This document shows, in pieces, positions 1,360 through 26,150 of a DNA stretch of 26,150 bases. Under the pieces are notes generated by a model. It saw only the letters and a program-made list of their open reading frames with translations, had not been told where the DNA came from and did no database searches. The first letter of the stretch is position 1; every line of letters starts with the position of its first letter. Both the position numbers and the translations under genes were made by a program. This DNA is from a virus (taxonomy: Duplodnaviria > Caudoviricetes), in the IMG/VR virus record IMGVR_UViG_3300001472_000143, positions 1-26,150 of that record. One strand, 5' to 3'.

Positions 1360-3765
1360 ATGCAAATTTCATACAACACTAACAGTTCTTTTCCTAGTCA
1401 AGTAGTACCAGACGCCGAGAAAGCTACTCTGGAATATGGTCTTGCTGTAGGTAGAGCTATAGAGGGAGAGTGGTTTAGAAACTATAGAGGTGGAGCTGGT
1501 GGTAGTGGTTACGCAATTAATTATAATAATTACCACAATTTAAGACTTTACGCAAGAGGAGAACAACCTGTACAAAAATACAAAGATGAATTAGCTATTA
1601 ATGGAGATTTATCATATTTAAATATAGACTGGAAACCAGTGCCTGTTATTGCTAAATTTGTAGATATAGTTGTTAATGGTATGTCAGAAAAGTCTTATGA
1701 ATTAAAAGCTTTTGCAGTAGATCCATTTTCAATACAACAAAGAACTCAGTATGCTAGAGATTTAATGAGAGATGTTCAAGAAAGAGAATTAGCAGAGCAG
1801 ATAAATCAAACTTTAGGTATAACTATAACAAGTCCTCAGTTTAGAGAATTAGGTTTAGAATCAGACGAAGAAGTTAAATTGCATTTGCAATTAGATTATA
1901 AACAATCTGTTGAAATAGCTGAAGAAGAATTATTAGAAGATGTTTTAAATAGAAATAAATATGAACTAACTAGACGTAGACTAGCTCAAGATTTAACTAT
2001 TTTAGGTATTGGAGCAGTAAAAACAAACTGGAGTAAGGAGAAAGGCATAATAATAGATTATGTTGATCCTGCTACTTTAATATATTCTTATACAGAAGAT
2101 CCTAATTTTGAAGATATATATTATGTTGGTGAAGTTAAAAGCATTAATTTAGCTGATTTAAAAACTCAATTTCCATATTTGTCTGATGAAGAAATGGAGC
2201 AAATACAAAAGTATCCTGGAAATTCAGAATATTTAAGAAATTGGAGTGGTAGAAATGATGAACAAACAGTTCAAGTTGTTTATTTTGAATATAAAACTTA
2301 CTCTGACCAAGTATTTAAAGTTAAAAAAACAGCTACTGGTTTAGAAAAAGCATTAGAGAAACCTGATACTTTTAGCCCACCTGAAAATGAAAACTTTGAA
2401 GTTGTATCAAGAACTATTGAAACACTATATAGTGGCGCTAAAATACTAGGACACCCTATGATGTTGAAATGGGAGTTAGCAGAAAATATGACTAGACCTT
2501 TTGCTGATACTACTCGAGTTAAAATGAATTATAACATATGTGCTCCAAGAATGTACAAAGGTAGAATTGAATCTATAGTTAGTAGAGTAACTGGTTTTGC
2601 TGATATGATACAGTTGACACATTTAAAGATTCAACAAGTATTAGCTAGAATGGTGCCTGATGGTGTGTTTTTAGATATGGATGGTTTAGCAGAAGTTGAC
2701 TTAGGTAATGGAACTAATTATAATCCTGCCGAAGCTTTAAATATGTATTTTCAAACTGGATCTATCGTGGGTAGATCGTTAACTCAAGATGGAGATCCTA
2801 ACAGAGGTAAAGTTCCTATACAAGAATTGCAAACTGGATCTGGCGGAAATAAAATTGGAACTCTAATACAAACTTATCAGTACTACTTACAAATGATAAG
2901 AGACGTAACCGGACTTAACGAAGCAAGAGATGGATCAACTCCAGATAAAGATACTTTAGTAGGTTTACAAAAGCTAGCAGCTAATGCGTCTAATACTGCT
3001 ACGAGGCATTTACAACAAGCAATGTCTTATTTAACTATAAGAACTGCTGAAAACGTTTCTTTAAGAATAAGTGATTCATTAGAATTTCCTTTTACAAAAC
3101 AAGCTTTAGAAAATAGTATATCAAGATACAATTTAGCTACTTTATCAGAAATAAGTAATTTAAATCTTCATGATTTTGGAATATTTATAGAACTAGAACC
3201 AGATGAAGAGCAACAAGCTCAATTAGAACAAAATATACAAATAGCTTTAAAAAGTGGTGGTATTGATCTAGAAGATGCTATAGATCTTAGAGAAATTAAA
3301 AATATTAAGCTAGCAAATCAAATGCTAAAAGAGCGAAGAAGAAGAAAGCAAGAAAGAGATCAAAGAAATCAACAAGCTAATATTCAAGCTCAAGCTGAAG
3401 CTAATGCAAAAGCTTCTGAAGCCTCTGCACTAGCAGAATTGCAAAAGCAACAAGGTATTGCAGAAACAACCGTTAATGTTGAGAGAGCTAAATCACAAAT
3501 GGATATTTCTGAAATGCAACAAAAAGCTGAAATAGATAAGCAATTAATGGAGCTTAAGTTTGGATATGACATGCAGTTAAAGCAGATGGATTTACAAGAA
3601 ATAGCTACAAGAGAAAAATTTATTGAAGATAGAAAAGATGAAAGAACTAAATTAGAAGGTACTCAACAAAGCGAAATGATACAACAAAGAGATATGAATT
3701 TACCTTCTATAGATTTTACCACTGGTAAATCATTAGAAAACAGCGTGCCTGGTGCAGAGCTGTAA
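1360..3765 (+). CDS. Portal protein
   Basis: 801 aa between terL and scaffold/capsid genes. Motifs PVPVIAKFVDIVVNG and MIRDVTGLNEARDG plus a long Gln/Glu-rich C-terminal coiled coil resemble P22/crAss-like portals. Confidence 0.88.
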   Translation: MQISYNTNSSFPSQVVPDAEKATLEYGLAVGRAIEGEWFRNYRGGAGGSGYAINYNNYHNLRLYARGEQPVQKYKDELAINGDLSYLNIDWKPVPVIAKFVDIVVNGMSEKSYELKAFAVDPFSIQQRTQYARDLMRDVQERELAEQINQTLGITITSPQFRELGLESDEEVKLHLQLDYKQSVEIAEEELLEDVLNRNKYELTRRRLAQDLTILGIGAVKTNWSKEKGIIIDYVDPATLIYSYTEDPNFEDIYYVGEVKSINLADLKTQFPYLSDEEMEQIQKYPGNSEYLRNWSGRNDEQTVQVVYFEYKTYSDQVFKVKKTATGLEKALEKPDTFSPPENENFEVVSRTIETLYSGAKILGHPMMLKWELAENMTRPFADTTRVKMNYNICAPRMYKGRIESIVSRVTGFADMIQLTHLKIQQVLARMVPDGVFLDMDGLAEVDLGNGTNYNPAEALNMYFQTGSIVGRSLTQDGDPNRGKVPIQELQTGSGGNKIGTLIQTYQYYLQMIRDVTGLNEARDGSTPDKDTLVGLQKLAANASNTATRHLQQAMSYLTIRTAENVSLRISDSLEFPFTKQALENSISRYNLATLSEISNLNLHDFGIFIELEPDEEQQAQLEQNIQIALKSGGIDLEDAIDLREIKNIKLANQMLKERRRRKQERDQRNQQANIQAQAEANAKASEASALAELQKQQGIAETTVNVERAKSQMDISEMQQKAEIDKQLMELKFGYDMQLKQMDLQEIATREKFIEDRKDERTKLEGTQQSEMIQQRDMNLPSIDFTTGKSLENSVPGAEL

Positions 3766-6456: not shown

Positions 6457-6485
6457 GAGAGTGGCTTTTTGTCACTCTCTTTATT
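6457..6485 (+). terminator. Intrinsic terminator after the major capsid gene
   Basis: Stem GAGAGTGGC (6457-6465) pairs with GTCACTCTC (6471-6479) with one G-U pair and a 5-nt loop, followed by TTTATT. Confidence 0.8.
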
Positions 6486-16928: not shown

Positions 16929-17519
16929 ATGGAAGAAATAAACGATCAGATAAAAAATAATCCAATAACTAAAGAGCAAGCTAAAAAACAGTTTATTGAA
17001 AAGACTAAAGAGTTAAACTTAAAGCATGCTTTTACATTTGATGAGGCTTGGGAAATAGGGCAAGAGTTAAGAAAAAAACAAGAATTTAGAAATAAAATGG
17101 AGTTGATTAGTGAAAAATTTAAAAACTCAGATCATTTTATAACAGGTGAAGATGCTAATAAATTAAATCCACTAAAACATAGTTTTGCAGATGGTTGTTA
17201 TATTAGAGAAATATTTAACCCTGCTGGTCAGTTAATATTAACTAAAATACATAAAAAGAAACATCCGTTTTTTTTAATACAAGGTGAAATGATAGTTCTT
17301 ACAGAGGAAGGTATTAAAACTCTTAAAGCACCTCACTACGGAATTACTGAACCAGGTACACAAAGAGTTATTTACTCTAAAACAGATTGCACGTTTGTTA
17401 CTGTACACGCTACAGACAAGACAGATATAAAGGAAATAGAAAAAGAAGTTATAGCTGAAGATTATAATGATCCAGAAATAACTTTAGATCAAATTAATTT
17501 AATAAAAAAACATATATGA
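16929..17519 (+). CDS. Cupin-fold (double-stranded beta-helix) protein
   Basis: The segment LKHSFADGCYIREIFNPAGQLILTKIHKKKHPFFLIQGEM...APHYGITEPGTQRVIYS...FVTVH follows the two-motif cupin pattern. The TGA stop overlaps the next ATG (ATGA at 17516-17519). Confidence 0.7.
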   Translation: MEEINDQIKNNPITKEQAKKQFIEKTKELNLKHAFTFDEAWEIGQELRKKQEFRNKMELISEKFKNSDHFITGEDANKLNPLKHSFADGCYIREIFNPAGQLILTKIHKKKHPFFLIQGEMIVLTEEGIKTLKAPHYGITEPGTQRVIYSKTDCTFVTVHATDKTDIKEIEKEVIAEDYNDPEITLDQINLIKKHI

Positions 17520-18169
17520 GTTTTATAGCAGGATCACTTTTGATAGGCGCTGGATTATCAGCAGCTACAGGAATATATGCACAGAGCAAAGCTAATAATG
17601 CTAAGACTGCTGCAATAGGTTTACAACAAAGTATAACTAGACTAGAAAATCAAAGACCTCCTATAGTAGATCCATACTCCGGTATTGAGGATTTAAGCGG
17701 TATGCTTTCAAATCCTTATGCTAATTTAGGCGTAGCTACAAATGCAGCAGAAATGAAAATAGAGCAAGCTGATATATCTTTGGCTAATACTTTAGATACT
17801 GTAAGAGCTGGAGGATTTGGTGCTGGTGGTGCTACTGCATTAGCTATGGCAGCTGCTAAAAGTAAACAAGGTGTTGTTGCTGATATTGAACAACAAGAAG
17901 CTTCAAATGAAAAACTTAAGGCACAAGGAGAGCAACAGCTTCAACAGAAGTTAATGTCTGAAAAAATGAGAGTACAAGAAGCAGAAGTTTCAGGAGCTAA
18001 ATATGTTTTCGAACAAAAAGATGCTAGAAAAATGCAACAACTAAATAGGGCTCAAGCAGCTTATGATCAAAATCAAGCTCAACAAATGCAATATCAAGCA
18101 GATGCAATGTCTGCTTTTACCGGCGCTGCGACTGGAGCTACGGCTGGTCTAGGCGAGTATTTTAGTTAA
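17516..18169 (+). CDS. Small internal virion/ejection protein (T7 gp14/P22 gp7-like position)
   Basis: 217 aa with Gly/Ala-rich hydrophobic N-terminal, central and C-terminal segments separated by Gln-rich coiled coils. It is the first of three progressively larger genes after the nozzle. Confidence 0.65.
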   Translation: MSFIAGSLLIGAGLSAATGIYAQSKANNAKTAAIGLQQSITRLENQRPPIVDPYSGIEDLSGMLSNPYANLGVATNAAEMKIEQADISLANTLDTVRAGGFGAGGATALAMAAAKSKQGVVADIEQQEASNEKLKAQGEQQLQQKLMSEKMRVQEAEVSGAKYVFEQKDARKMQQLNRAQAAYDQNQAQQMQYQADAMSAFTGAATGATAGLGEYFS

Positions 18170-18180
18170 AATAATAAATT

Positions 18181-20028
18181 ATGAGTTACGAAAAACCAAC
18201 CCAAATATTAGATACTTCTTTAACTCAAGTTGTTAAAGGCTTAGATCAAAATAGAGCTATGCTATTAGCTAAAATTGAAGCTAGAAAAAAAGAAAGACAA
18301 GCTTCTCAAAAAGCTAATTTAAAACAACAAAAGCAAGAAGAAAAAGAAGCTAATGCTAGAAGAAGAAGAGAAGGTACTATTAGAAAAGGTATAGATGACA
18401 ATATAGCTAAGTTTAATTCTAAATTTAGTGATGAGTATTTAACTCTAAATGATGCAACTACTGGCTCTTGGAGCTCTGCTACGGGTGAAGTTTATGATCA
18501 AATAGAAATAACTAAAGATCAATTAGAACAAGATTACGAAGCATATCAAGCAGCTTTATTAAAAGATCCTAATGCATCTCTTCAAGATATTAACCCTATA
18601 TATGAACAAGGTTTTGATATTGAAACTATGTACCATGAAGAAGTAGGAGGTCCGTTAGATGATATTAAAGATGCAATAGAAGCCAACTGGAAAGAAATGG
18701 CTAATGTAGATGAAGGCTCAGAAGAATATATGCAATATAAAAAAAATATAGATGACATATTAAGACAAGCTCCTGGTTTTATAAGTATACTTAACACAAC
18801 GGTAGAAGGAACTTCTACAGCTTGGGATTATAATGGTGATGTAATTGAACCTGCTGCTAACATGCCAGGTCTAATATTATATGACGGAAAGCCTGATTTT
18901 GAACTAAGGCAAGAAGCTGCTAAGATGATTCATCTTAAACAGAAACAAGGTAGATTTAATTATACTTATAAAGATGGAAAATCGTACATGGAATATACAT
19001 CTCCTACGTCTTACAATGGAAAAAATAAACTACTAATAGAAGAAGAAGTTTACATGAACGCTGTTAGGAATGGAGATATGGGTGGACTAATCAACGTTAC
19101 AGATGCTACATTTTTAGAAGAAGTAGTAGAAACTGTTTTTGATGATGGTACAGAAAATCAATATAAGAAACTAGTAACAACTAGTAATCTAAGTGAAACA
19201 GCTACTGATGAAGAAAAAAAGAAAGTTGTTAGACAAAGAATAAAAAATTACGATAACGCAAATAAATTATTACAAACTAAAGTAGATGCTTTTATAGATT
19301 CAAAAGGTTTAGCTAGTAATTATAATCCTAATTTAATACAGAGCAATTGGCAAATGTTAGGTGGTCCAGACGAAAATGAAGCAGGTGGTGAAACAGTTTA
19401 TGAAGGAACACCTGAACAAATTGCAAGAGCTAAAAAATTATTATATGAGCATGTAAAAAGAACTAAGGGTGGAGATACTGGTATAATTGGAAATGGAGTA
19501 ACAGAAACAATTCTTAACGAAGTTGAAAATGAAGATGCTATAGATTTAGCTAGAGGAGAAGGTATTAAGCTAGATGTTAAAGAACTTAACAAGTATCTTC
19601 CAAATCTTCAAAAAACAGCTTCCGGCACTGATGGTAAGGCTGGATACTCTTACGACAATTTATATGCAAACTTTAAATCACTTAAAGCTAATAATGGACA
19701 AGGCGCTTTGGCAGTTTTAAATTCAGGTGGAAATGGAAATTACATAACTGGTGCTGAATTAAAGACTAAATACCCTACTATTGACTTATCTGACATAGAC
19801 GATGCTCAGTTGTATGTATATAAAAGTGGTTCAAATAAGCCTACTAAAGTTAATCCAAAAGTACTTAAAGATTTTGACATATTTTTAAACGAGGTTAATA
19901 AATCAAATAGTTCGATAACAAACAAAAGCCACAACGCAGCTTTAAAGCTTATAGACAGAGATCAAGAAATAGCTAGGTTAGAATCTGATGGGGATTCTAA
20001 TTTACCACCACTGCCTGGCATGGCATAA
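18181..20028 (+). CDS. Putative second internal virion/ejection protein
   Basis: 615 aa with an N-terminal basic coiled coil. The call rests on synteny between the small and giant ejection-type genes; no catalytic motif was recognised. Confidence 0.5.
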   Translation: MSYEKPTQILDTSLTQVVKGLDQNRAMLLAKIEARKKERQASQKANLKQQKQEEKEANARRRREGTIRKGIDDNIAKFNSKFSDEYLTLNDATTGSWSSATGEVYDQIEITKDQLEQDYEAYQAALLKDPNASLQDINPIYEQGFDIETMYHEEVGGPLDDIKDAIEANWKEMANVDEGSEEYMQYKKNIDDILRQAPGFISILNTTVEGTSTAWDYNGDVIEPAANMPGLILYDGKPDFELRQEAAKMIHLKQKQGRFNYTYKDGKSYMEYTSPTSYNGKNKLLIEEEVYMNAVRNGDMGGLINVTDATFLEEVVETVFDDGTENQYKKLVTTSNLSETATDEEKKKVVRQRIKNYDNANKLLQTKVDAFIDSKGLASNYNPNLIQSNWQMLGGPDENEAGGETVYEGTPEQIARAKKLLYEHVKRTKGGDTGIIGNGVTETILNEVENEDAIDLARGEGIKLDVKELNKYLPNLQKTASGTDGKAGYSYDNLYANFKSLKANNGQGALAVLNSGGNGNYITGAELKTKYPTIDLSDIDDAQLYVYKSGSNKPTKVNPKVLKDFDIFLNEVNKSNSSITNKSHNAALKLIDRDQEIARLESDGDSNLPPLPGMA

Positions 20029-20044
20029 TTTAAAATTATAATTA

Positions 20045-20292
20045 ATGAAATATATTTGGAACAACAACGAGTACACTCAAGAAGACATAGACGCTGCTTT
20101 AGAGGCAACAGGACAAGATCTTGATACATATCTATCTGAAAATAAAATAGAGGTCTTAGAAGATGAAAACGAAAAAAAGCTAGTAGATGTTGCAGAGAGT
20201 GCGGATGTAGCATCAGAAACTACAGCACCAGAGAATTTGGATTTAAAATCAGAGGAAGTTTCATCGGAGTCTTCTTCAGAAGATCTTGGTAA
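20045..20292 (+). CDS. Predicted 82-aa transframe product of the giant gene
   Basis: 45 zero-frame codons plus 37 codons in the -1 frame (ASRCCRECGCSIRNYSTREFGFKIRGSFIGVFFRRSW), ending at TAA 20290-20292. It exists only if the frameshift is real. Confidence 0.55.
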
Positions 20293-23200
20293 GAAAGAAG
20301 AGAAGCCAAAGAAAAAAGTAAAATTAAAATTTGATCGTTTACTGAAAGAAGAAGTAAATGTATTAGAAGATATAGATTTAAATCCATCTGTAATAGATAT
20401 AAGTTCTGCAGATAACTTTGTAGAGCTTAATAAAGATAGTGATACAACTTACGCTGGATCTATAGTTAAACTAGAAAAGCTAGACAAAACAAAACAAGAA
20501 CAAGCTACTAAGCAAATATTAGATGTACCTAAAGAATTAGAAAACCAAATAGACGAAAAAGGTTTTTACCAAAAAGACGTAGGTAATTATTATAAAGTTA
20601 CTTATAAAAATGAAGATGGTAATTTAATTCAAAGTGATTTTCCTATTTATATATCAGACGAAAACTTTAAAAGAAATATAACTAATAAATTAAAGTCAGA
20701 TTTAGACGATGTTTTAAATGAAGAAAGAAATTTATTATCTCAAGGTGGAGATGTAAATGAAAACGACATACTTTTATTAGAAGAAAGAAAACAATCACTA
20801 CAAAGTCAATTGATAAACCTTGGCGTAGATGTCAACGATGAATTTGCATGGACTAATCCTAGTGATGCTGAAAGATTAGATGAATTTGAAATTGTAGCAA
20901 AACAAGATCAGTCTATATTAGATGCAAATCCTAATGACAATGCTATTAGAGTAGCTGAGTTAAATTCTGAATTAACAAATTACACTACAGAATTAGAAAA
21001 AAGTACTGATCCTGTAGAACAAAAAAGATTACAAAAAGTAATTGAAGCCACTGGAGAAGAATTAGAAGAAGAAACAATTCTTTTAAATAAAGCTATATAT
21101 ACTTTAGATAAAATTAAAGCTGAAAACAATGTAGTAGACCCCACTGTAAAACCTCTTTCTACTAATTTATTTCATAACAGCAAAATTACTACTTATGAAA
21201 AAGATTATTTTACTTATAAAAATGATAAAGGAGAACATGTAGATCCTACTAAAGTAAAAGATTATAATCTTGAAGTAACAGACAAAGGTGTAAAAAACAT
21301 AAGTAAAATCTCCGCTGAAAATCTTACTAAAAATTTTAATTCAAAATATTTAAATTATGGGCTAGGTGCTGATTACGATAGATCTTTTTTAAATATCGGA
21401 GATAGTGCTATGAATGTTTATAAAAATCCACGTTACAATAAAAGTGGTAGAATAGACTTAGTAGAAACAGCTAAAGCTAATAATATTCCTTATGATACTA
21501 TTATAGCACAAGAAGATTTACAGCAGTATTTAATTGACAAAGGTATTGCTACTACATTAGAAACAGGTAGTTCTTTAATAAAAACAGATAAAGAAGAGAT
21601 AGTGAATCTTATTAACTTTATAGAAAAAAATCAAGGAGATTTTAGAAAAAGTAAAGAGGTTTCACAGTATCAAAAAAGCAATGGTCAAGCAGGTAGAAAT
21701 CAAAAGCTTAAACAATATAATAACGTTATAAAAAAGAGTATAAACGACGTTAAACCTTTGCTTATAAAAAACAATAACTTAATTACTAAATATGCTAATG
21801 ATACAATAGAATTAAAGTCAATTCAAGAACAAGCTGCATTATATAAAAAAGAAACTGAAGCTAAGCTTGCTAAAGTACTAAAACCTAATGAAAAACTAAA
21901 AGAGCAAATACTTAGTAAAGAAAAGTTAGAACAATTAGTAACTAGAGAAGCAAACAAAATACAAGAAATGATTAAAAAAGATCCTTCAAGATATGAAGAA
22001 TTATCTAAAGGATTTGAAAATTGGCAAAATAATCTAGTAAGTAGACAGAAACAAGTAATAGAAGAGTATAATAAAAACATATCTAAAAAAGATACAATAT
22101 TAAAAAGGTTTGACAATAAATTTGATAGTAAATATGTAGATAAATTAACTGCTATAGATGAAAAATTAAAACAGTACCAACAAGACGTTACTAAATTTTC
22201 TACTGCTATAGAACAATCAATGTCGCAAGTTTCTATTTATCAAACTTTAGTTAAAACTTTAGAGTACTCTGACTCTGAATTTAATATAAAATTAGACAGA
22301 ATAAATAAGTCTTTAGAAGGTGAAGGAGATGCTATATCTCAAACATGGAATATATTTACTGAACAGTTTACTAGAACTAGTGTTGGTAGGATAGCTCCTT
22401 TTGAGCTTTTAGCAAGAGGTATTAACGAACTTGGTGGACTAGTAGGTCAATATGAGTTTGGAAGAAAAATAGGTGGCTATACTAGAGAGCAATACGAAAG
22501 AAATAAACAACAATTAGATTTTTCAACAATAGAAAGATCTAATGCTGTGCCTGCAATAGCTAATGTATTTGCTATAAAAGGAGTTTCAGATACATATGCA
22601 AAGGCCTATTCTGAAAGCTGGATGGGTGGAACTGCTCAAGCTTTAACACAAATGGTTGGAGCTTCTATGGGAGCACCAGTAACTGGTCTTTTTGGAGGAT
22701 TTTTTCTTAGCTCTTTACAAAATAGTGAAGACAAGATAATAGAAATGAGAAATGATGCTGTTAGGAATAGAGCTGACGGTGTTAGTAGAGCAGAAGCTAA
22801 AAAACAATTTGATGAAAAGTTTCCTAAATCTTCACAAGTAGCGTATGCATATATTCAAGCAACTGTAGAAGGAGCTTTATCGCATGTCAGTGGTAAGATA
22901 ATGAAAGGCCAAACAGATATGTCTGCTGGTTTAATTAGAAAATTTACTAATGCTACTTTATCTAGACTTGGGTCAAACGCAACAGCTAGAGATATACAGT
23001 TGATGGTTAGAAAACTAGTAGGAGAAACTACAGCTAAATATATGCGCTTTGTTGGTAAAGGAACTACAGCTGGTTTAGATGAAATGCTTGAAGAAACTAC
23101 TCAAGATTTTGCTGCTATGGGAATTGATGCAGCTTTTCAACGAATAACAGAATTAGACTTTGACTTGCCAGATATTACTAGTGAAGAATATGGTAAGCAA

Positions 23201-26150
23201 TTTAAGCATATGCTTTTAGTTAGTTTTACATCTGGCTTTATTGGTGCTTCTTTTTCTACTTTAGCTAATAGAGATTTTCTAGATCCATTAACTGAGTTTG
23301 AAAAATTGGATTTTAGAAGCAGATTACAAGCTAATCAAGAACTTTATGATCAAATTCAAAATATTAAAAGTGATAATGGTTATAGTTCTGAACTAGGTAA
23401 AATAGAAACAAATCTTGAAAATAATGTAATAACTCAAGAAGAAGCTGATCAACAAAGAAAAGAATTAAATGATCTTGTTAGTGATTATAAAGAAATACCT
23501 AATAATTTAAATGGGTCTACTCAATATTTAATTGCTCAGAAAAAACAACAAATAAGAGAATTAAATAATCAATTAGCACAAGGTGGTCTTAGTAATCCAG
23601 CAAATTCTAATATAAAAGAAGCTATAAAAAATATTGAAGGTGAAATATCTGAAATGTCTTCAAACTCTAATAATCAACATAAAGAAGTAGAAGATAAAAC
23701 TGATTTTGCTTTAGCTGCTCAACTTAGGTTAACTGCAAAAACAAAAGGATTAGATCCTTCAACTGCTGTTGTAGAAGTGTTTAATGAAGATAATGCGCAA
23801 GCTATAGCGGATAAATATGGATTAACTGTAGAAGAAGTTTTAAGCCCAGAAGGAGTTTATTTAAAAGATTCTAATAGTATAATAATTTCAGAAAAAGCTT
23901 CTAAAGGAGTTAAAGAGCATGAAGGATCTCATAATTATTGGGATATAGCATTAAATAAAGCTGAAAATAAAAATGCTGTATTTGGTATGGCAGATGCTGT
24001 TATGAAGAAAATGATAGCTTTAGATCCTGCTGCAGCTGATGTTTTGCAGAACCAACTTTTAAAATACTCTAATGACTCTAAGTATACGCAAGAGCAAGTG
24101 GCAGAAGAAGTTATTACATACTATACTCAAATGAAAAAAGCTGGGTTTTTTAAAGAAAACAAAAGTGTTACTCAAGAGATAGCAAGATGGTTTAATAGTT
24201 TGTTACAGTCTATAGGTATTCAAATAGAAGTAAATGCAGAAAATATAGACGGAATATTAGATGATTATCTTGGCAATTTATCTAAAGGTAAACTTAATGC
24301 TGCACAGAGAAGATTAGCTAGAGGCGATGTTAATATAAGTAAAAGTTTACAAGTAGAACCTGGACAAACCTCTATAACTGCTTTGTCTGAAGATACAACC
24401 CCTGTAGTAGATATAAAACAAGATACTCAAACACAAACTAAGCAAGCTGCATCTCTACCTTTAAGTGTAGACACTAAGTCTATGTCAAATGCTTTTGATA
24501 AAAATTTAACTAATGATTTAAAAAGTAATGACGATTTTAAACAAAGTGAAGCAGCTATAGATGCTTTTGATGCTATTGAAAGTAATTCAAATTTTAATAG
24601 TTATATAAATCAATTAATAACTAGAGATAAAAGTTTACAAAGTTTAAATCCAGAAATTAAAGAAGACATTAATAGAAAAATAAAAGAAAATTTACAGTTA
24701 AGAATATTAAAGAATTTTAAACCAGAACTTGACGGTAATAAGCGTAGTTTATTTAGTTTTATATATGGAAAAGCAACTGACAAAGGTATGGGTGGTATTG
24801 CTTTCAGAGCTTTACAGGATATTAAAAAAGACTACGTAAAAACAGCACCAACAACTTCTATAGATAATGTGCTTGATGACACAGGTAGAACAAGAGATTT
24901 TGCTGATACTAGTATAGATATAGAAGGGTCTATAGATGAAAAAGTTGTAATACCAAGATCTAAGATAAAGCAACAAACAGAATTAGTTGACGAGCAAACT
25001 GAAGCTGAATTTGAAACTGCAGCTTTAGAAATAATAGAAGGTGTTATGCCTGACATCGAAGATAAAAACTTTAGATCTTTTATAGATGATGTTTTTGATG
25101 CTAAATTAACTGACAAAGTTAAGAAAAAATTAGGTACTGGAAAACAGTACGAAGAGACTATAAAGAAATTAGCTCCAAAAATGAAGAGCTTATTTCCTAT
25201 ACAATACTTTGTAAAGCTAGAATCACAAACGTCTCCTGAAAATAGAATTTTTACTAAACCTCCAAGGCGTTTAACTAAACAATCTGAAATAGATCAAGCT
25301 GTTTTAAGAGATGATGTTTATTTAGAAAATACAGCACAAGGCGTTAACTTATATGAGTTCAATGATTTTACTCCTAAACAACTAGCAGACTATATTTTAG
25401 CACCACCCGTAAGCCCTACAACTGGCAAGAGAAGTGGCTTAAGAGGTAATAGAAAAACAACAACTGCAAAAGAAATAACAAAAGAAATAGGTAGAGATAT
25501 ATTACCATCCACCATGGATAAGGCTGGTATTGATCCAAGAGATAGATCTAAGGTAGGTGTAAAAATTCAAAGAGATCCTAGAGCTTTAATGGCTAAGGCT
25601 TTTTCATCAGAAGATAGAATTAAGTTAGAAGAAGCAGCAGCGGCTAGTGATATTAACGCTGCTGGTGTTATTGCTGGATTACCGAAAGGAAGTATAACTG
25701 TAACTAACAGTAATAGAGCTTCTAAAATAAAACAAGTTCTTAATGATATTAAAACTTTTGGCTTATCATTAAATGTTTTTGAATCATCTATGCCGGCTGC
25801 AGCAGGCGCTAATAGAGTGCAGGTTAATAAGAAGAAACCAAATGGTGACTTAACACCTGATGCTAAGAAGTTAGATACTTATTTAAAAAATAATAAAATA
25901 AAAGCAAAAGATGGAGTTTACTTTTATGAGCTAACAAATGGAGACTATGTAAAATCTGTGCCAGTTAGAAAAAAAGATGGAAGTATTGGACAAGGAGTAA
26001 CTTATCCTGACGGCGTAACAAACTTAGTTCCAGCAAGAGGAAGGTTATATTATGGAACTACTGATCCTAATTACATCGAAGCTTTAGAAGCGGCTAAAGA
26101 AAATACTAAAAAAGATGCTTTAATACCTAAAAAAGTTTCTGTTATAGAAA
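20045..26150 (+). CDS. Giant internal virion/ejection polyvalent protein (at least 2035 aa, 3' truncated) with a zincin domain
   Basis: Translated by hand from ATG 20045 (MKYIWNNNEYTQEDIDAALE...) with no in-frame stop to the window end. It contains coiled coils, Gly-rich hydrophobic segments (22619-22717, 23210-23266), HEGSH at 23918-23932 and a downstream EE at 24104-24109. Confidence 0.9.
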   Translation, partial: MKYIWNNNEYTQEDIDAALEATGQDLDTYLSENKIEVLEDENEKKLVDVAESADVASETTAPENLDLKSEEVSSESSSEDLGKKEEKPKKKVKLKFDRLLKEEVNVLEDIDLNPSVIDISSADNFVELNKDSDTTYAGSIVKLEKLDKTKQEQATKQILDVPKELENQIDEKGFYQKDVGNYYKVTYKNEDGNLIQSDFPIYISDENFKRNITNKLKSDLDDVLNEERNLLSQGGDVNENDILLLEERKQSLQSQLINLGVDVNDEFAWTNPSDAERLDEFEIVAKQDQSILDANPNDNAIRVAELNSELTNYTTELEKSTDPVEQKRLQKVIEATGEELEEETILLNKAIYTLDKIKAENNVVDPTVKPLSTNLFHNSKITTYEKDYFTYKNDKGEHVDPTKVKDYNLEVTDKGVKNISKISAENLTKNFNSKYLNYGLGADYDRSFLNIGDSAMNVYKNPRYNKSGRIDLVETAKANNIPYDTIIAQEDLQQYLIDKGIATTLETGSSLIKTDKEEIVNLINFIEKNQGDFRKSKEVSQYQKSNGQAGRNQKLKQYNNVIKKSINDVKPLLIKNNNLITKYANDTIELKSIQEQAALYKKETEAKLAKVLKPNEKLKEQILSKEKLEQLVTREANKIQEMIKKDPSRYEELSKGFENWQNNLVSRQKQVIEEYNKNISKKDTILKRFDNKFDSKYVDKLTAIDEKLKQYQQDVTKFSTAIEQSMSQVSIYQTLVKTLEYSDSEFNIKLDRINKSLEGEGDAISQTWNIFTEQFTRTSVGRIAPFELLARGINELGGLVGQYEFGRKIGGYTREQYERNKQQLDFSTIERSNAVPAIANVFAIKGVSDTYAKAYSESWMGGTAQALTQMVGASMGAPVTGLFGGFFLSSLQNSEDKIIEMRNDAVRNRADGVSRAEAKKQFDEKFPKSSQVAYAYIQATVEGALSHVSGKIMKGQTDMSAGLIRKFTNATLSRLGSNATARDIQLMVRKLVGETTAKYMRFVGKGTTAGLDEMLEETTQDFAAMGIDAAFQRITELDFDLPDITSEEYGKQFKHMLLVSFTSGFIGASFSTLANRDFLDPLTEFEKLDFRSRLQANQELYDQIQNIKSDNGYSSELGKIETNLENNVITQEEADQQRKELNDLVSDYKEIPNNLNGSTQYLIAQKKQQIRELNNQLAQGGLSNPANSNIKEAIKNIEGEISEMSSNSNNQHKEVEDKTDFALAAQLRLTAKTKGLDPSTAVVEVFNEDNAQAIADKYGLTVEEVLSPEGVYLKDSNSIIISEKASKGVKEHEGSHNYWDIALNKAENKNAVFGMADAVMKKMIALDPAAADVLQNQLLKYSNDSKYTQEQVAEEVITYYTQMKKAGFFKENKSVTQEIARWFNSLLQSIGIQIEVNAENIDGILDDYLGNLSKGKLNAAQRRLARGDVNISKSLQVEPGQTSITALSEDTTPVVDIKQDTQTQTKQAASLPLSVDTKSMSNAFDKNLTNDLKSNDDFKQSEAAIDAFDAIESNSNFNSYINQLITRDKSLQSLNPEIKEDINRKIKENLQLRILKNFKPELDGNKRSLFSFIYGKATDKGMGGIAFRALQDIKKDYVKTAPTTSIDNVLDDTGRTRDFADTSIDIEGSIDEKVVIPRSKIKQQTELVDEQTEAEFETAALEIIEGVMPDIEDKNFRSFIDDVFDAKLTDKVKKKLGTGKQYEETIKKLAPKMKSLFPIQYFVKLESQTSPENRIFTKPPRRLTKQSEIDQAVLRDDVYLENTAQGVNLYEFNDFTPKQLADYILAPPVSPTTGKRSGLRGNRKTTTAKEITKEIGRDILPSTMDKAGIDPRDRSKVGVKIQRDPRALMAKAFSSEDRIKLEEAAAASDINAAGVIAGLPKGSITVTNSNRASKIKQVLNDIKTFGLSLNVFESSMPAAAGANRVQVNKKKPNGDLTPDAKKLDTYLKNNKIKAKDGVYFYELTNGDYVKSVPVRKKDGSIGQGVTYPDGVTNLVPARGRLYYGTTDPNYIEALEAAKENTKKDALIPKKVSVIE
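20173..20228 (+). promoter_or_regulatory. Candidate -1 programmed ribosomal frameshift signal
   Basis: In-frame A_AAA_AAG (20173-20179), spacer CTAGTA, and a 9-bp stem GATGTTGCA (20186-20194)/TGTAGCATC (20206-20214). The loop GTGC (20199-20202) is complementary to GCAC (20225-20228). Confidence 0.7.

Follow-up and report, generated by a model that had tools for sequence, protein, structure and literature searches.

Sequence evidence for a proposed programmed −1 frameshift near the start of a giant, probable ejection-protein gene in podovirus-like phages

Introduction

Conserved frameshifts in tailed phages are known mainly from tail chaperone genes and from extensions of capsid and tail proteins. 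In lambda, a conserved −1 shift within a dsDNA phage morphogenesis gene gives gpG and gpGT, two products with one N-terminus made at a set ratio, and sites of the G_GGA_AAG and A_AAA_AAC types are described in g-t genes (PMC5009743). The frameshifts of T7 and T3 gene 10 and of Listeria phage capsid and tail genes also lie in virion genes, including those of a podovirus. Outside phages, E. coli dnaX and the IS3 family combine A_AAA_AAG with a 3' hairpin or pseudoknot stimulator; A_AAA_AAG, like G_GGA_AAG, is listed among the three most efficient E. coli motifs, and A_AAG as the best tetramer (PMC4066793).

Here we analyse a stretch of 26,150 nucleotides, IMG/VR virus record IMGVR_UViG_3300001472_000143 (the whole stretch is referred to as the window). 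An earlier note, made from the sequence alone, had proposed that a −1 frameshift near the start of a giant gene in this stretch would shorten, and not lengthen, the gene product.

Results

Gene neighbourhood and the giant gene

The window is a 26-kb fragment of about 32% GC with a podovirus-like structural module, in which terminase, portal, capsid and tail-type structural genes are followed by a triplet of a 217-aa, a 615-aa and a giant gene.

Terminase gene, match to phrog_6681
Portal gene, match to phrog_6547
Capsid gene, match to phrog_13704
17516..18169, + strand: 217-aa gene, first of the triplet and comparison anchor, profile match to phi38:1 gp099
18181..20028, + strand: 615-aa gene, middle of the triplet
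20045..26149, + strand: giant gene, zero frame, putative gp16-like ejection/core protein, 2035 aa here, running off the window

A terminator-like hairpin with a U-run lies directly 3' of the major capsid gene (6458-6483). The records nearest to the capsid protein are ctfjg026, Maribacter phage Panino, the Flavobacterium elemo phages and Cellulophaga phi38:1 (36-50% identity), compared with 23% for the phi13:2 group. These neighbours point to a marine member of the Flavobacteriia as the probable host; of seven genome-collection matches, three fall in one Flavobacteriaceae MAG and four in unrelated MAGs. With respect to the Pervagoviridae and Pachyviridae, the capsid identity of this 26-kb structural fragment suggests a relative but does not amount to membership.

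Podovirus ejection operons contain adjacent small, medium and large genes (gp14/gp15/gp16-like), and their products are low-copy (PMC8954989). The order of such operons, with a small gene of about 200 aa, a medium and a large gene placed after the tail genes, is found here with products of 217, 615 and 3257 aa, and the 217-aa protein matches phi38:1 gp099, which is annotated as structural (hhalign 93%, E 3e-7). On the basis of gene order and this match, the giant is probably an ejected virion protein. Its full length is taken from database protein P0018 (3257 aa, without a single cysteine), which is identical to the window part at 2031 of 2035 positions. No Pfam or PHROG match was found for the part of the giant within the window, and BLASTP of the giant against phi18:3 gp123 (MS/MS-supported according to its record) and phi38:1 gp101 returned no match. 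The term "ejection gene" used in the earlier note is thus backed by the triplet order and the small-gene match, but not by any resemblance to giants with virion-proteomics support. Beyond the window, P0018 residues 2317-2492 give a weak polynucleotide-kinase-like PHROG match (E 3e-5), and an HExxH-like motif can be seen by eye in the windowed part of the giant.

The first 43 codons of the giant form an acidic module that is exchangeable, several unrelated types being found upstream of the same cassette among relatives. This exchangeability fits a packaging or targeting tag, which is the likely role of the module; Pfam and PHROG searches with the module and tail gave nothing informative. The module occurs in tandem in L011 and L012, which lack the cassette. 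One module type also starts long ORFs in high-GC phage contigs without the cassette (L240-L247, L249, L251, L252).

A candidate frameshift site in the window

The elements of the putative frameshift site are listed below.

20045..20173, + strand: acidic N-terminal module, codons 1-43, common to both predicted products
20173..20179, + strand: slippery heptamer A_AAA_AAG (Lys-Lys, codons 44-45, within GAA AAA AAG)
20180..20185, + strand: 6-nt spacer CTAGTA
20186..20214, + strand: pseudoknot stem 1, 20186-20194 with 20206-20214, 9 bp including two G-U pairs, 11-nt loop
20199..20228, + strand: pseudoknot stem 2, loop GTGC 20199-20202 with GCAC 20225-20228, 4 bp
20179..20292, + strand: −1 frame tail, 37 aa and TAA (20290-20292), no start codon of its own, net charge +6
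20221..20286, + strand: predicted beta-hairpin part of the tail, a divergent form of the family motif

The heptamer, spacer, stem, loop, GTGC/GCAC pairing, upstream TGA, open frame and product length reported in the earlier note were confirmed base for base. The predicted transframe product has 82 aa (9.7 kDa), with an acidic head (−9) and a basic tail (+6). A −1 frame TGA is indeed present just upstream (20164-20166), but it is dispensable, being lost in a variant contig.

The longest −1 open stretch spans 41 codons compared with a mean of 21 on synonymous resampling with the zero-frame protein kept (p=0.002, 1000 resamplings). The avoidance of T at codons where it would create a −1 stop, also remarked upon in the earlier note, holds at 10 of 10 such codons (P ~1e-4, a generous figure because the stretch is defined by being open). 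The stem 1 hairpin has a predicted energy of −10.4 kcal/mol, and the window fold is modest when taken alone (z=−1.9, with 10 of 200 shuffles equally stable); against recoding, p is 0.055 for stem 1 and 0.41 for stem 2 with its 4 bp. Fourteen in-frame slippery heptamers occur in the 13 long ORFs of the window; the one at 20173-20179 surpasses the rest in stability of the downstream fold and in −1 tail length, bar one at a gene overlap. A search of Rfam (E up to 1, positions 19000-21500) gave no matches to curated frameshift elements, and no indel at the A7 run of the window was found in contigs from the sequencing runs. The strength of the frameshift case comes from relatives and not from the window alone.

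A strong hairpin (−16 kcal/mol) also lies behind T_TTA_AAT at giant codon 112 (20377-20441); the −1 frame there is open for only 10 aa, and L002 does not show this arrangement.

The cassette in syntenic giant genes

Using the 217-aa gene as an anchor we fetched 177 loci, to which two were added via the N-terminus of the giant; 180 sequences including the window were examined, the near-copy L001 being skipped. Removal of 56 (53 too short downstream, two with a closed second ORF and one without the anchor) left 123, or 103 after dereplication, and exclusion of the mis-called gene in L154 gave 102 distinct giant genes. For scale, an estimated ~620 IMG/VR stretches match patterns for the anchor gene.

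A −1 stretch of at least 30 codons is present within the first 200 codons in 73 of the 102 genes, compared with 16 of 96 for codons 201-400, and −1 openness reaches p<=0.01 in 33 of the 102. A cassette of a slippery site at codons 31-79, a hairpin 4-8 nt downstream and a −1 frame open for 29-52 aa was found in 73 of 102 genes (72 by a rule of at least 28 codons and at least two Cys, and L052 by hand). The count is partly circular, since openness and cysteines in the −1 frame were selection criteria and the heptamers were listed once candidates had been seen. The cassette is not universal, since 29 of the 102 relatives lack it and no replacement was found in them; 22 of these 29 fall in one 26-row clade of a quick tree.

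One candidate heptamer was assigned per gene from a list of ten, compiled after the candidates had been viewed. The sites are A_GUA_AAG (22), G_GGA_AAG (20), A_AAA_AAG (8), G_GAU_UUU (8), A_AAA_AAA (6), A_GCA_AAG (4), G_GUA_AAG (2), and G_GGA_AAC, A_AAU_UUU and G_GAA_AAG (one each; n=73), and in the tree of the anchor gene Lys-type and Phe-type sites are swapped among sister rows. A first triplet G_GA is reported to be used by insect-specific flaviviruses (PMC5009743). At 28 of the 73 sites (A/G_GUA_AAG and A_GCA_AAG) re-pairing is possible in the A site only, and these may be weak. A hairpin of −8 kcal/mol or below follows the slippery site in 72 of 73 cassettes and the spacer is 5-7 nt in 62, while an upstream Shine-Dalgarno-like stimulator (AGGA, GGAG or GAGG), an optional feature of such signals, occurs in only four. 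As a control, 43,319 gene-body codons contained 155 such heptamers, of which four had a hairpin, two had a long tail and none had both.

A covarying pseudoknot downstream of the slippery site

In the nucleotide alignment of the 73 sequences, 88% of cells in the H-type pseudoknot are paired and double changes occur in 14 of 15 pairs. None of 500 shuffles covaried as highly and slid controls were 20-53% paired. Both comparisons are favoured to some extent: the pseudoknot was named from the same 73 sequences, an advantage over the slid controls, and the shuffle result is inflated by relatedness. Stem 1 has double changes in all nine pairs, with 90-95% of cells paired. In 48 of the 73 cassettes stem 2 is 5-7 bp long, and the 4 bp of the window lie in the same register; its pairs take varied forms (GGAUGC/GCAUCC, GGGUGC/GCACCC, GGUUGC/GCAACC, GGCUGC/GCAGCC, GAUUCC/GGAAUC and GGAUAC/GUAUCC). 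In a per-sequence recoding test, p<=0.05 was reached by stem 1 in 27 and by stem 2 in 19 of the 73.

Free of the circularity that affects the cassette counts is a scan of IMG/VR with an RNA pattern consisting only of G_GGA_AAG, the 5' arm and the loop; the pattern includes three Cys codons and leaves out frame, position and the 3' motif. In 32 of its 33 matches a long ORF carries the heptamer in frame at codons 31-62; all 32 have a tail and 31 have the anchor gene upstream, and the remaining match is put down to chance. All 22 distinct matches encode the hairpin motif, their −1 frames contain no stops compared with 50.8 expected, and just one of the 22 was already among the 73. The homologue alignment proposed in the earlier note as a check has thus come out in its favour for most relatives: the slippery site is conserved, the stems covary, the pseudoknot included, and the −1 frame is open and conserved.

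Another reading takes the structure for a recombination element, or a site of protein binding, within a flexible linker, with no frameshift at all. The similarity of differing giants does start or stop at the cassette: near-identity between 20045-20236 of the window and L002:3001-3192 stops just past stem 2, at 20236, and several contigs (runs X1, X5, X11, X17 and X19) share only 20175-20236 with different flanks. On these grounds the cassette is a possible hot spot of recombination, where N-terminal modules and giant bodies would be shuffled. Such an element leaves unexplained why in-frame heptamers of two decoding classes should lie at a fixed spacing, and why the −1 frame should be under selection, and as a substitute for frameshifting we regard it as very improbable.

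Selection on the −1 frame peptide

The tails are 29-52 aa long with a median net charge of +5. A strict motif of the type YG-I-x-I-G-x-W/Y-F-F-G is found in 51 of 73 and an F-x-F-W-K-W-x-I type in 17, while five, including the window, have neither. In the AlphaFold2 model, whose overall confidence is low (pTM 0.25), a disordered Cys region is followed by a hairpin of two strands (pLDDT 70-74), and the conserved part of the tail is predicted to be an aromatic, Gly-containing beta-hairpin.

In a frame-blind alignment, variability peaks at position 3 of the −1 codons (entropy 1.41 versus 1.11 and 1.09), the opposite of the normal pattern given by a control gene. Gly is found 342 times in the tails against 109 expected, and the Gly columns use all four GGN codons, forcing rare TCG, TTG and ACG codons in the zero frame. 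Rare zero-frame TCG, ACG, GCG and CCG codons make up 25-31% under the tail versus 4-8% in gene bodies. Folding of 27 of the 73 sequences gave no consensus RNA structure beneath the 3' motif, and a second hairpin under the window tail (20249-20283), considered as a possible element, was rejected as not conserved. From these codon patterns we conclude that selection acts on the −1 frame peptide, which favours a functional second product over a mere limiting of the giant.

The cysteines behave differently. Four are present in 42 of the 73 tails, and changes in the inner stem pairs are mainly wobble at the third position of Cys codons, but their total (282) is close to the 266 predicted from the zero frame, four tails have none (L052, L239, L250 and L257), and the Cys codons coincide with the stem arms. 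A population variant, G20192A, seen in a deep contig of a sequencing run that may be the source of the window DNA, converts G-U to A-U and keeps the stem while replacing Cys with Tyr; it is the same contig that lacks the upstream TGA. Judged from these comparisons the tail cysteines are dispensable, and metal binding by the cluster is possible, the support for it being the modal count of four. The earlier note had predicted a hidden Cys-rich protein: the predicted 82-aa product stands, but its conserved part is the beta-hairpin and its Cys content is what the zero frame would give. Extra Cys-rich repeats lie between the Cys cluster and the hairpin in L201, L209 and L217 (at about locus positions 3001-3200).

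These data also bear on whether a real frameshift does no more than throttle the giant, the tail then arising as a side effect of RNA structure and of coding in the zero frame. The behaviour of the cysteines (their position on stem arms, their expected number, the Cys-free tails and the G20192A variant) is what such a by-product would show, and ejection proteins are described as low-copy (PMC8954989). A nearby stop would suffice for throttling, however, yet the −1 frame stays open for 29-52 codons, with no stops among the pattern-scan matches, and the Gly columns force rare zero-frame codons where there is no RNA structure to account for them. We therefore consider throttling alone improbable. 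The suggestion in the earlier note that the shift limits synthesis of the giant is retained as far as the truncating signal is concerned, but the tail appears to be a selected product and not just a throttle.

A word-indexed search for longer proteins containing the tail found none, and in the ESM Atlas tail matches scored below 0.8 and the giant region matched only unnamed clusters. A profile search of 1.84 billion representatives found 17 proteins in which module and tail share a single frame. We considered these as stand-alone genes and instead read them as indel variants or errors, because all 10 that were looked up are single-member clusters and the five loci matching P0007 all keep the two-frame layout.

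Long A-runs in cultured relatives

Cultured relatives carry long A-runs at the 5' end of the giant gene. An A10 run is found in phi38:1, Calle_2, Gundel_1 and elemoA_12-9A, and an A11 run in the uncultured ctfjg026; these runs are in frame near codons 33-63 and are followed by a basic aromatic −1 stretch. In five further phages an A9 run coincides with a split annotation, and in each of the five a tail-like stretch sits in the −1 frame relative to that of the giant.

L184:21119-21394: phi13:2, A9, split giant (GenBank)
L186:5310-5633: phi18:3, A9, split giant (GenBank)
L187:7056-7376: phi19:3, A9, split giant (GenBank)
L188:6119-6439: phi46:3, A9, split giant (GenBank)
L180:23700-23900: Panino, A9, split giant (GenBank)

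Among 12,125 segments, the tail profile matches only the tails of Panino (E 0.007) and ctfjg026 (E 0.018); the remaining cultured-relative tails resemble the window family by eye only.

The genomes of Cellulophaga phages phi13:2, phi18:3, phi19:3 and phi46:3 were presumably sequenced by 454. Panino is reported as sequenced by Nanopore only (PMC11590407) and Gundel_1 by Illumina (PMC8776804). An inverted polarity, in which the giant would be reached only by shifting, was considered for the five A9 phages; homopolymer undercall was judged likelier because the orthologous Illumina A10 run of Gundel_1 is in frame, Panino has Nanopore data only and the tail-like stretch is at −1. The five GenBank giants are thus probably split by undercall, the other reading being a real slippage-dependent gene.

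The long runs make polymerase slippage a live option in the cultured relatives, where they (and that of ctfjg026) occupy the same place as the slippery site, and slippage by RNA polymerase is described as efficient on nine A or T (PMC5009743). As the source of the short product in the window family, in place of ribosomal frameshifting, it is very unlikely: runs of about nine or more A/T are confined to the A9-A11 relatives, the window has only A7, 59 of the 73 sites have no long A-run, and a covarying pseudoknot at ribosomal spacing would be unneeded. Slippage is plausible for the cultured A9-A11 group only.

Discussion

We propose that a slippery site and H-type pseudoknot drive a programmed −1 frameshift at codons 44-45 of the giant gene, yielding a short second protein, and from the comparative sequence evidence we put the probability of this at roughly 0.85. 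Ribosomes would pause at the pseudoknot, lysine tRNAs would slip back by one base and pair again, and a constant fraction, which by analogy with E. coli may be a few to tens of percent, would stop at 20290-20292. The short product would then consist of the shared N-terminal module and a basic aromatic tail predicted as a beta-hairpin.

Should the module act as a tag that steers ejection proteins into procapsids, the short product would most likely accompany the giant. It could be co-delivered in a fixed proportion, serving in the core or in assembly as a small component which binds via its hairpin, in a balance like that of lambda G/GT; this role is tentative, and we rate it somewhat below even. 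More speculative still is the idea that the cassette is portable across podoviruses of marine Flavobacteriia, joins the hairpin tail to the packaging tag of the giant and supplies a fourth, unannotated ejection/core component at a fixed ratio; cultured Pervagoviridae, Pachyviridae and Elemovirus would make theirs via A9-A11 runs, possibly by polymerase slippage. On that reading, if true, it would be the second widespread recoding event in tailed phages after G/GT.

A truncating shift in a giant gene would lie in another class of gene than those from which conserved frameshifts of tailed phages are mainly known, and would shorten the product where those lengthen it. It would reveal a small conserved protein missed by gene callers in a large marine phage group, and give a way to study what determines copy number and packaging of the giant ejected proteins in podoviruses. 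The ten slippery sites, combined with a single pseudoknot, form a natural series, and phi38:1, Calle, Gundel_1 and the elemo phages make the phenomenon testable. In agreement with the earlier note, the parts of the open literature searched (including PMC5009743, PMC4066793, PMC8776804, PMC11590407, PMC13720416, PMC8954989 and PMC7886860) gave no account of frameshifting in an ejection gene of podoviruses or within these families.

Of the cultured groups, the Pervagoviridae (phi38:1, Calle), Pachyviridae (phi13:2, Gundel_1), Elemovirus and Panino share the gene order of the window and have an A-rich site with a basic aromatic −1 stretch at the 5' end of the giant. They differ in having A9-A11 runs in place of the heptamer and pseudoknot, and in lacking the Cys cluster. 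A switch between a ribosomal signal and a long A-run, as in the slippage described for T. thermophilus dnaX, is thus mirrored among relatives of the window.

Lambda G/GT differs in that its shift lies near the 3' end, gives the longer product and belongs to long-tailed phages, whereas the shift proposed here lies about 45 codons into a podovirus-like gene of more than 3000 codons, truncates it and adds a selected tail of 30-50 aa; the module contains no gene pair in which a 3'-end shift precedes a tape measure gene. The T7/T3 gene 10 and Listeria shifts are described as giving C-terminal extensions, and none of those described truncates an internal protein gene. In E. coli copA, translation stops almost at once after the shift. 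That shift, too, lies close to the 5' end of its long gene and gives a small product of 70 aa (PMC5009743), but copA encodes a cellular copper ATPase and CopA(Z) is the zero-frame N-terminal segment, whereas the −1 frame here codes a motif of its own. Of the features of a dnaX/IS3-type signal, an in-frame X_XXY_YYZ heptamer or Z_ZZN tetramer, a covarying 3' structure 5-7 nt downstream and a predicted −1 product under selection are all found. The family departs from that model in the scarcity of Shine-Dalgarno-like stimulators, in its setting in a phage structural gene and in its ten interchangeable heptamers. The cassette of the window would work like a dnaX/IS3 signal and is not a member of the G/GT class.
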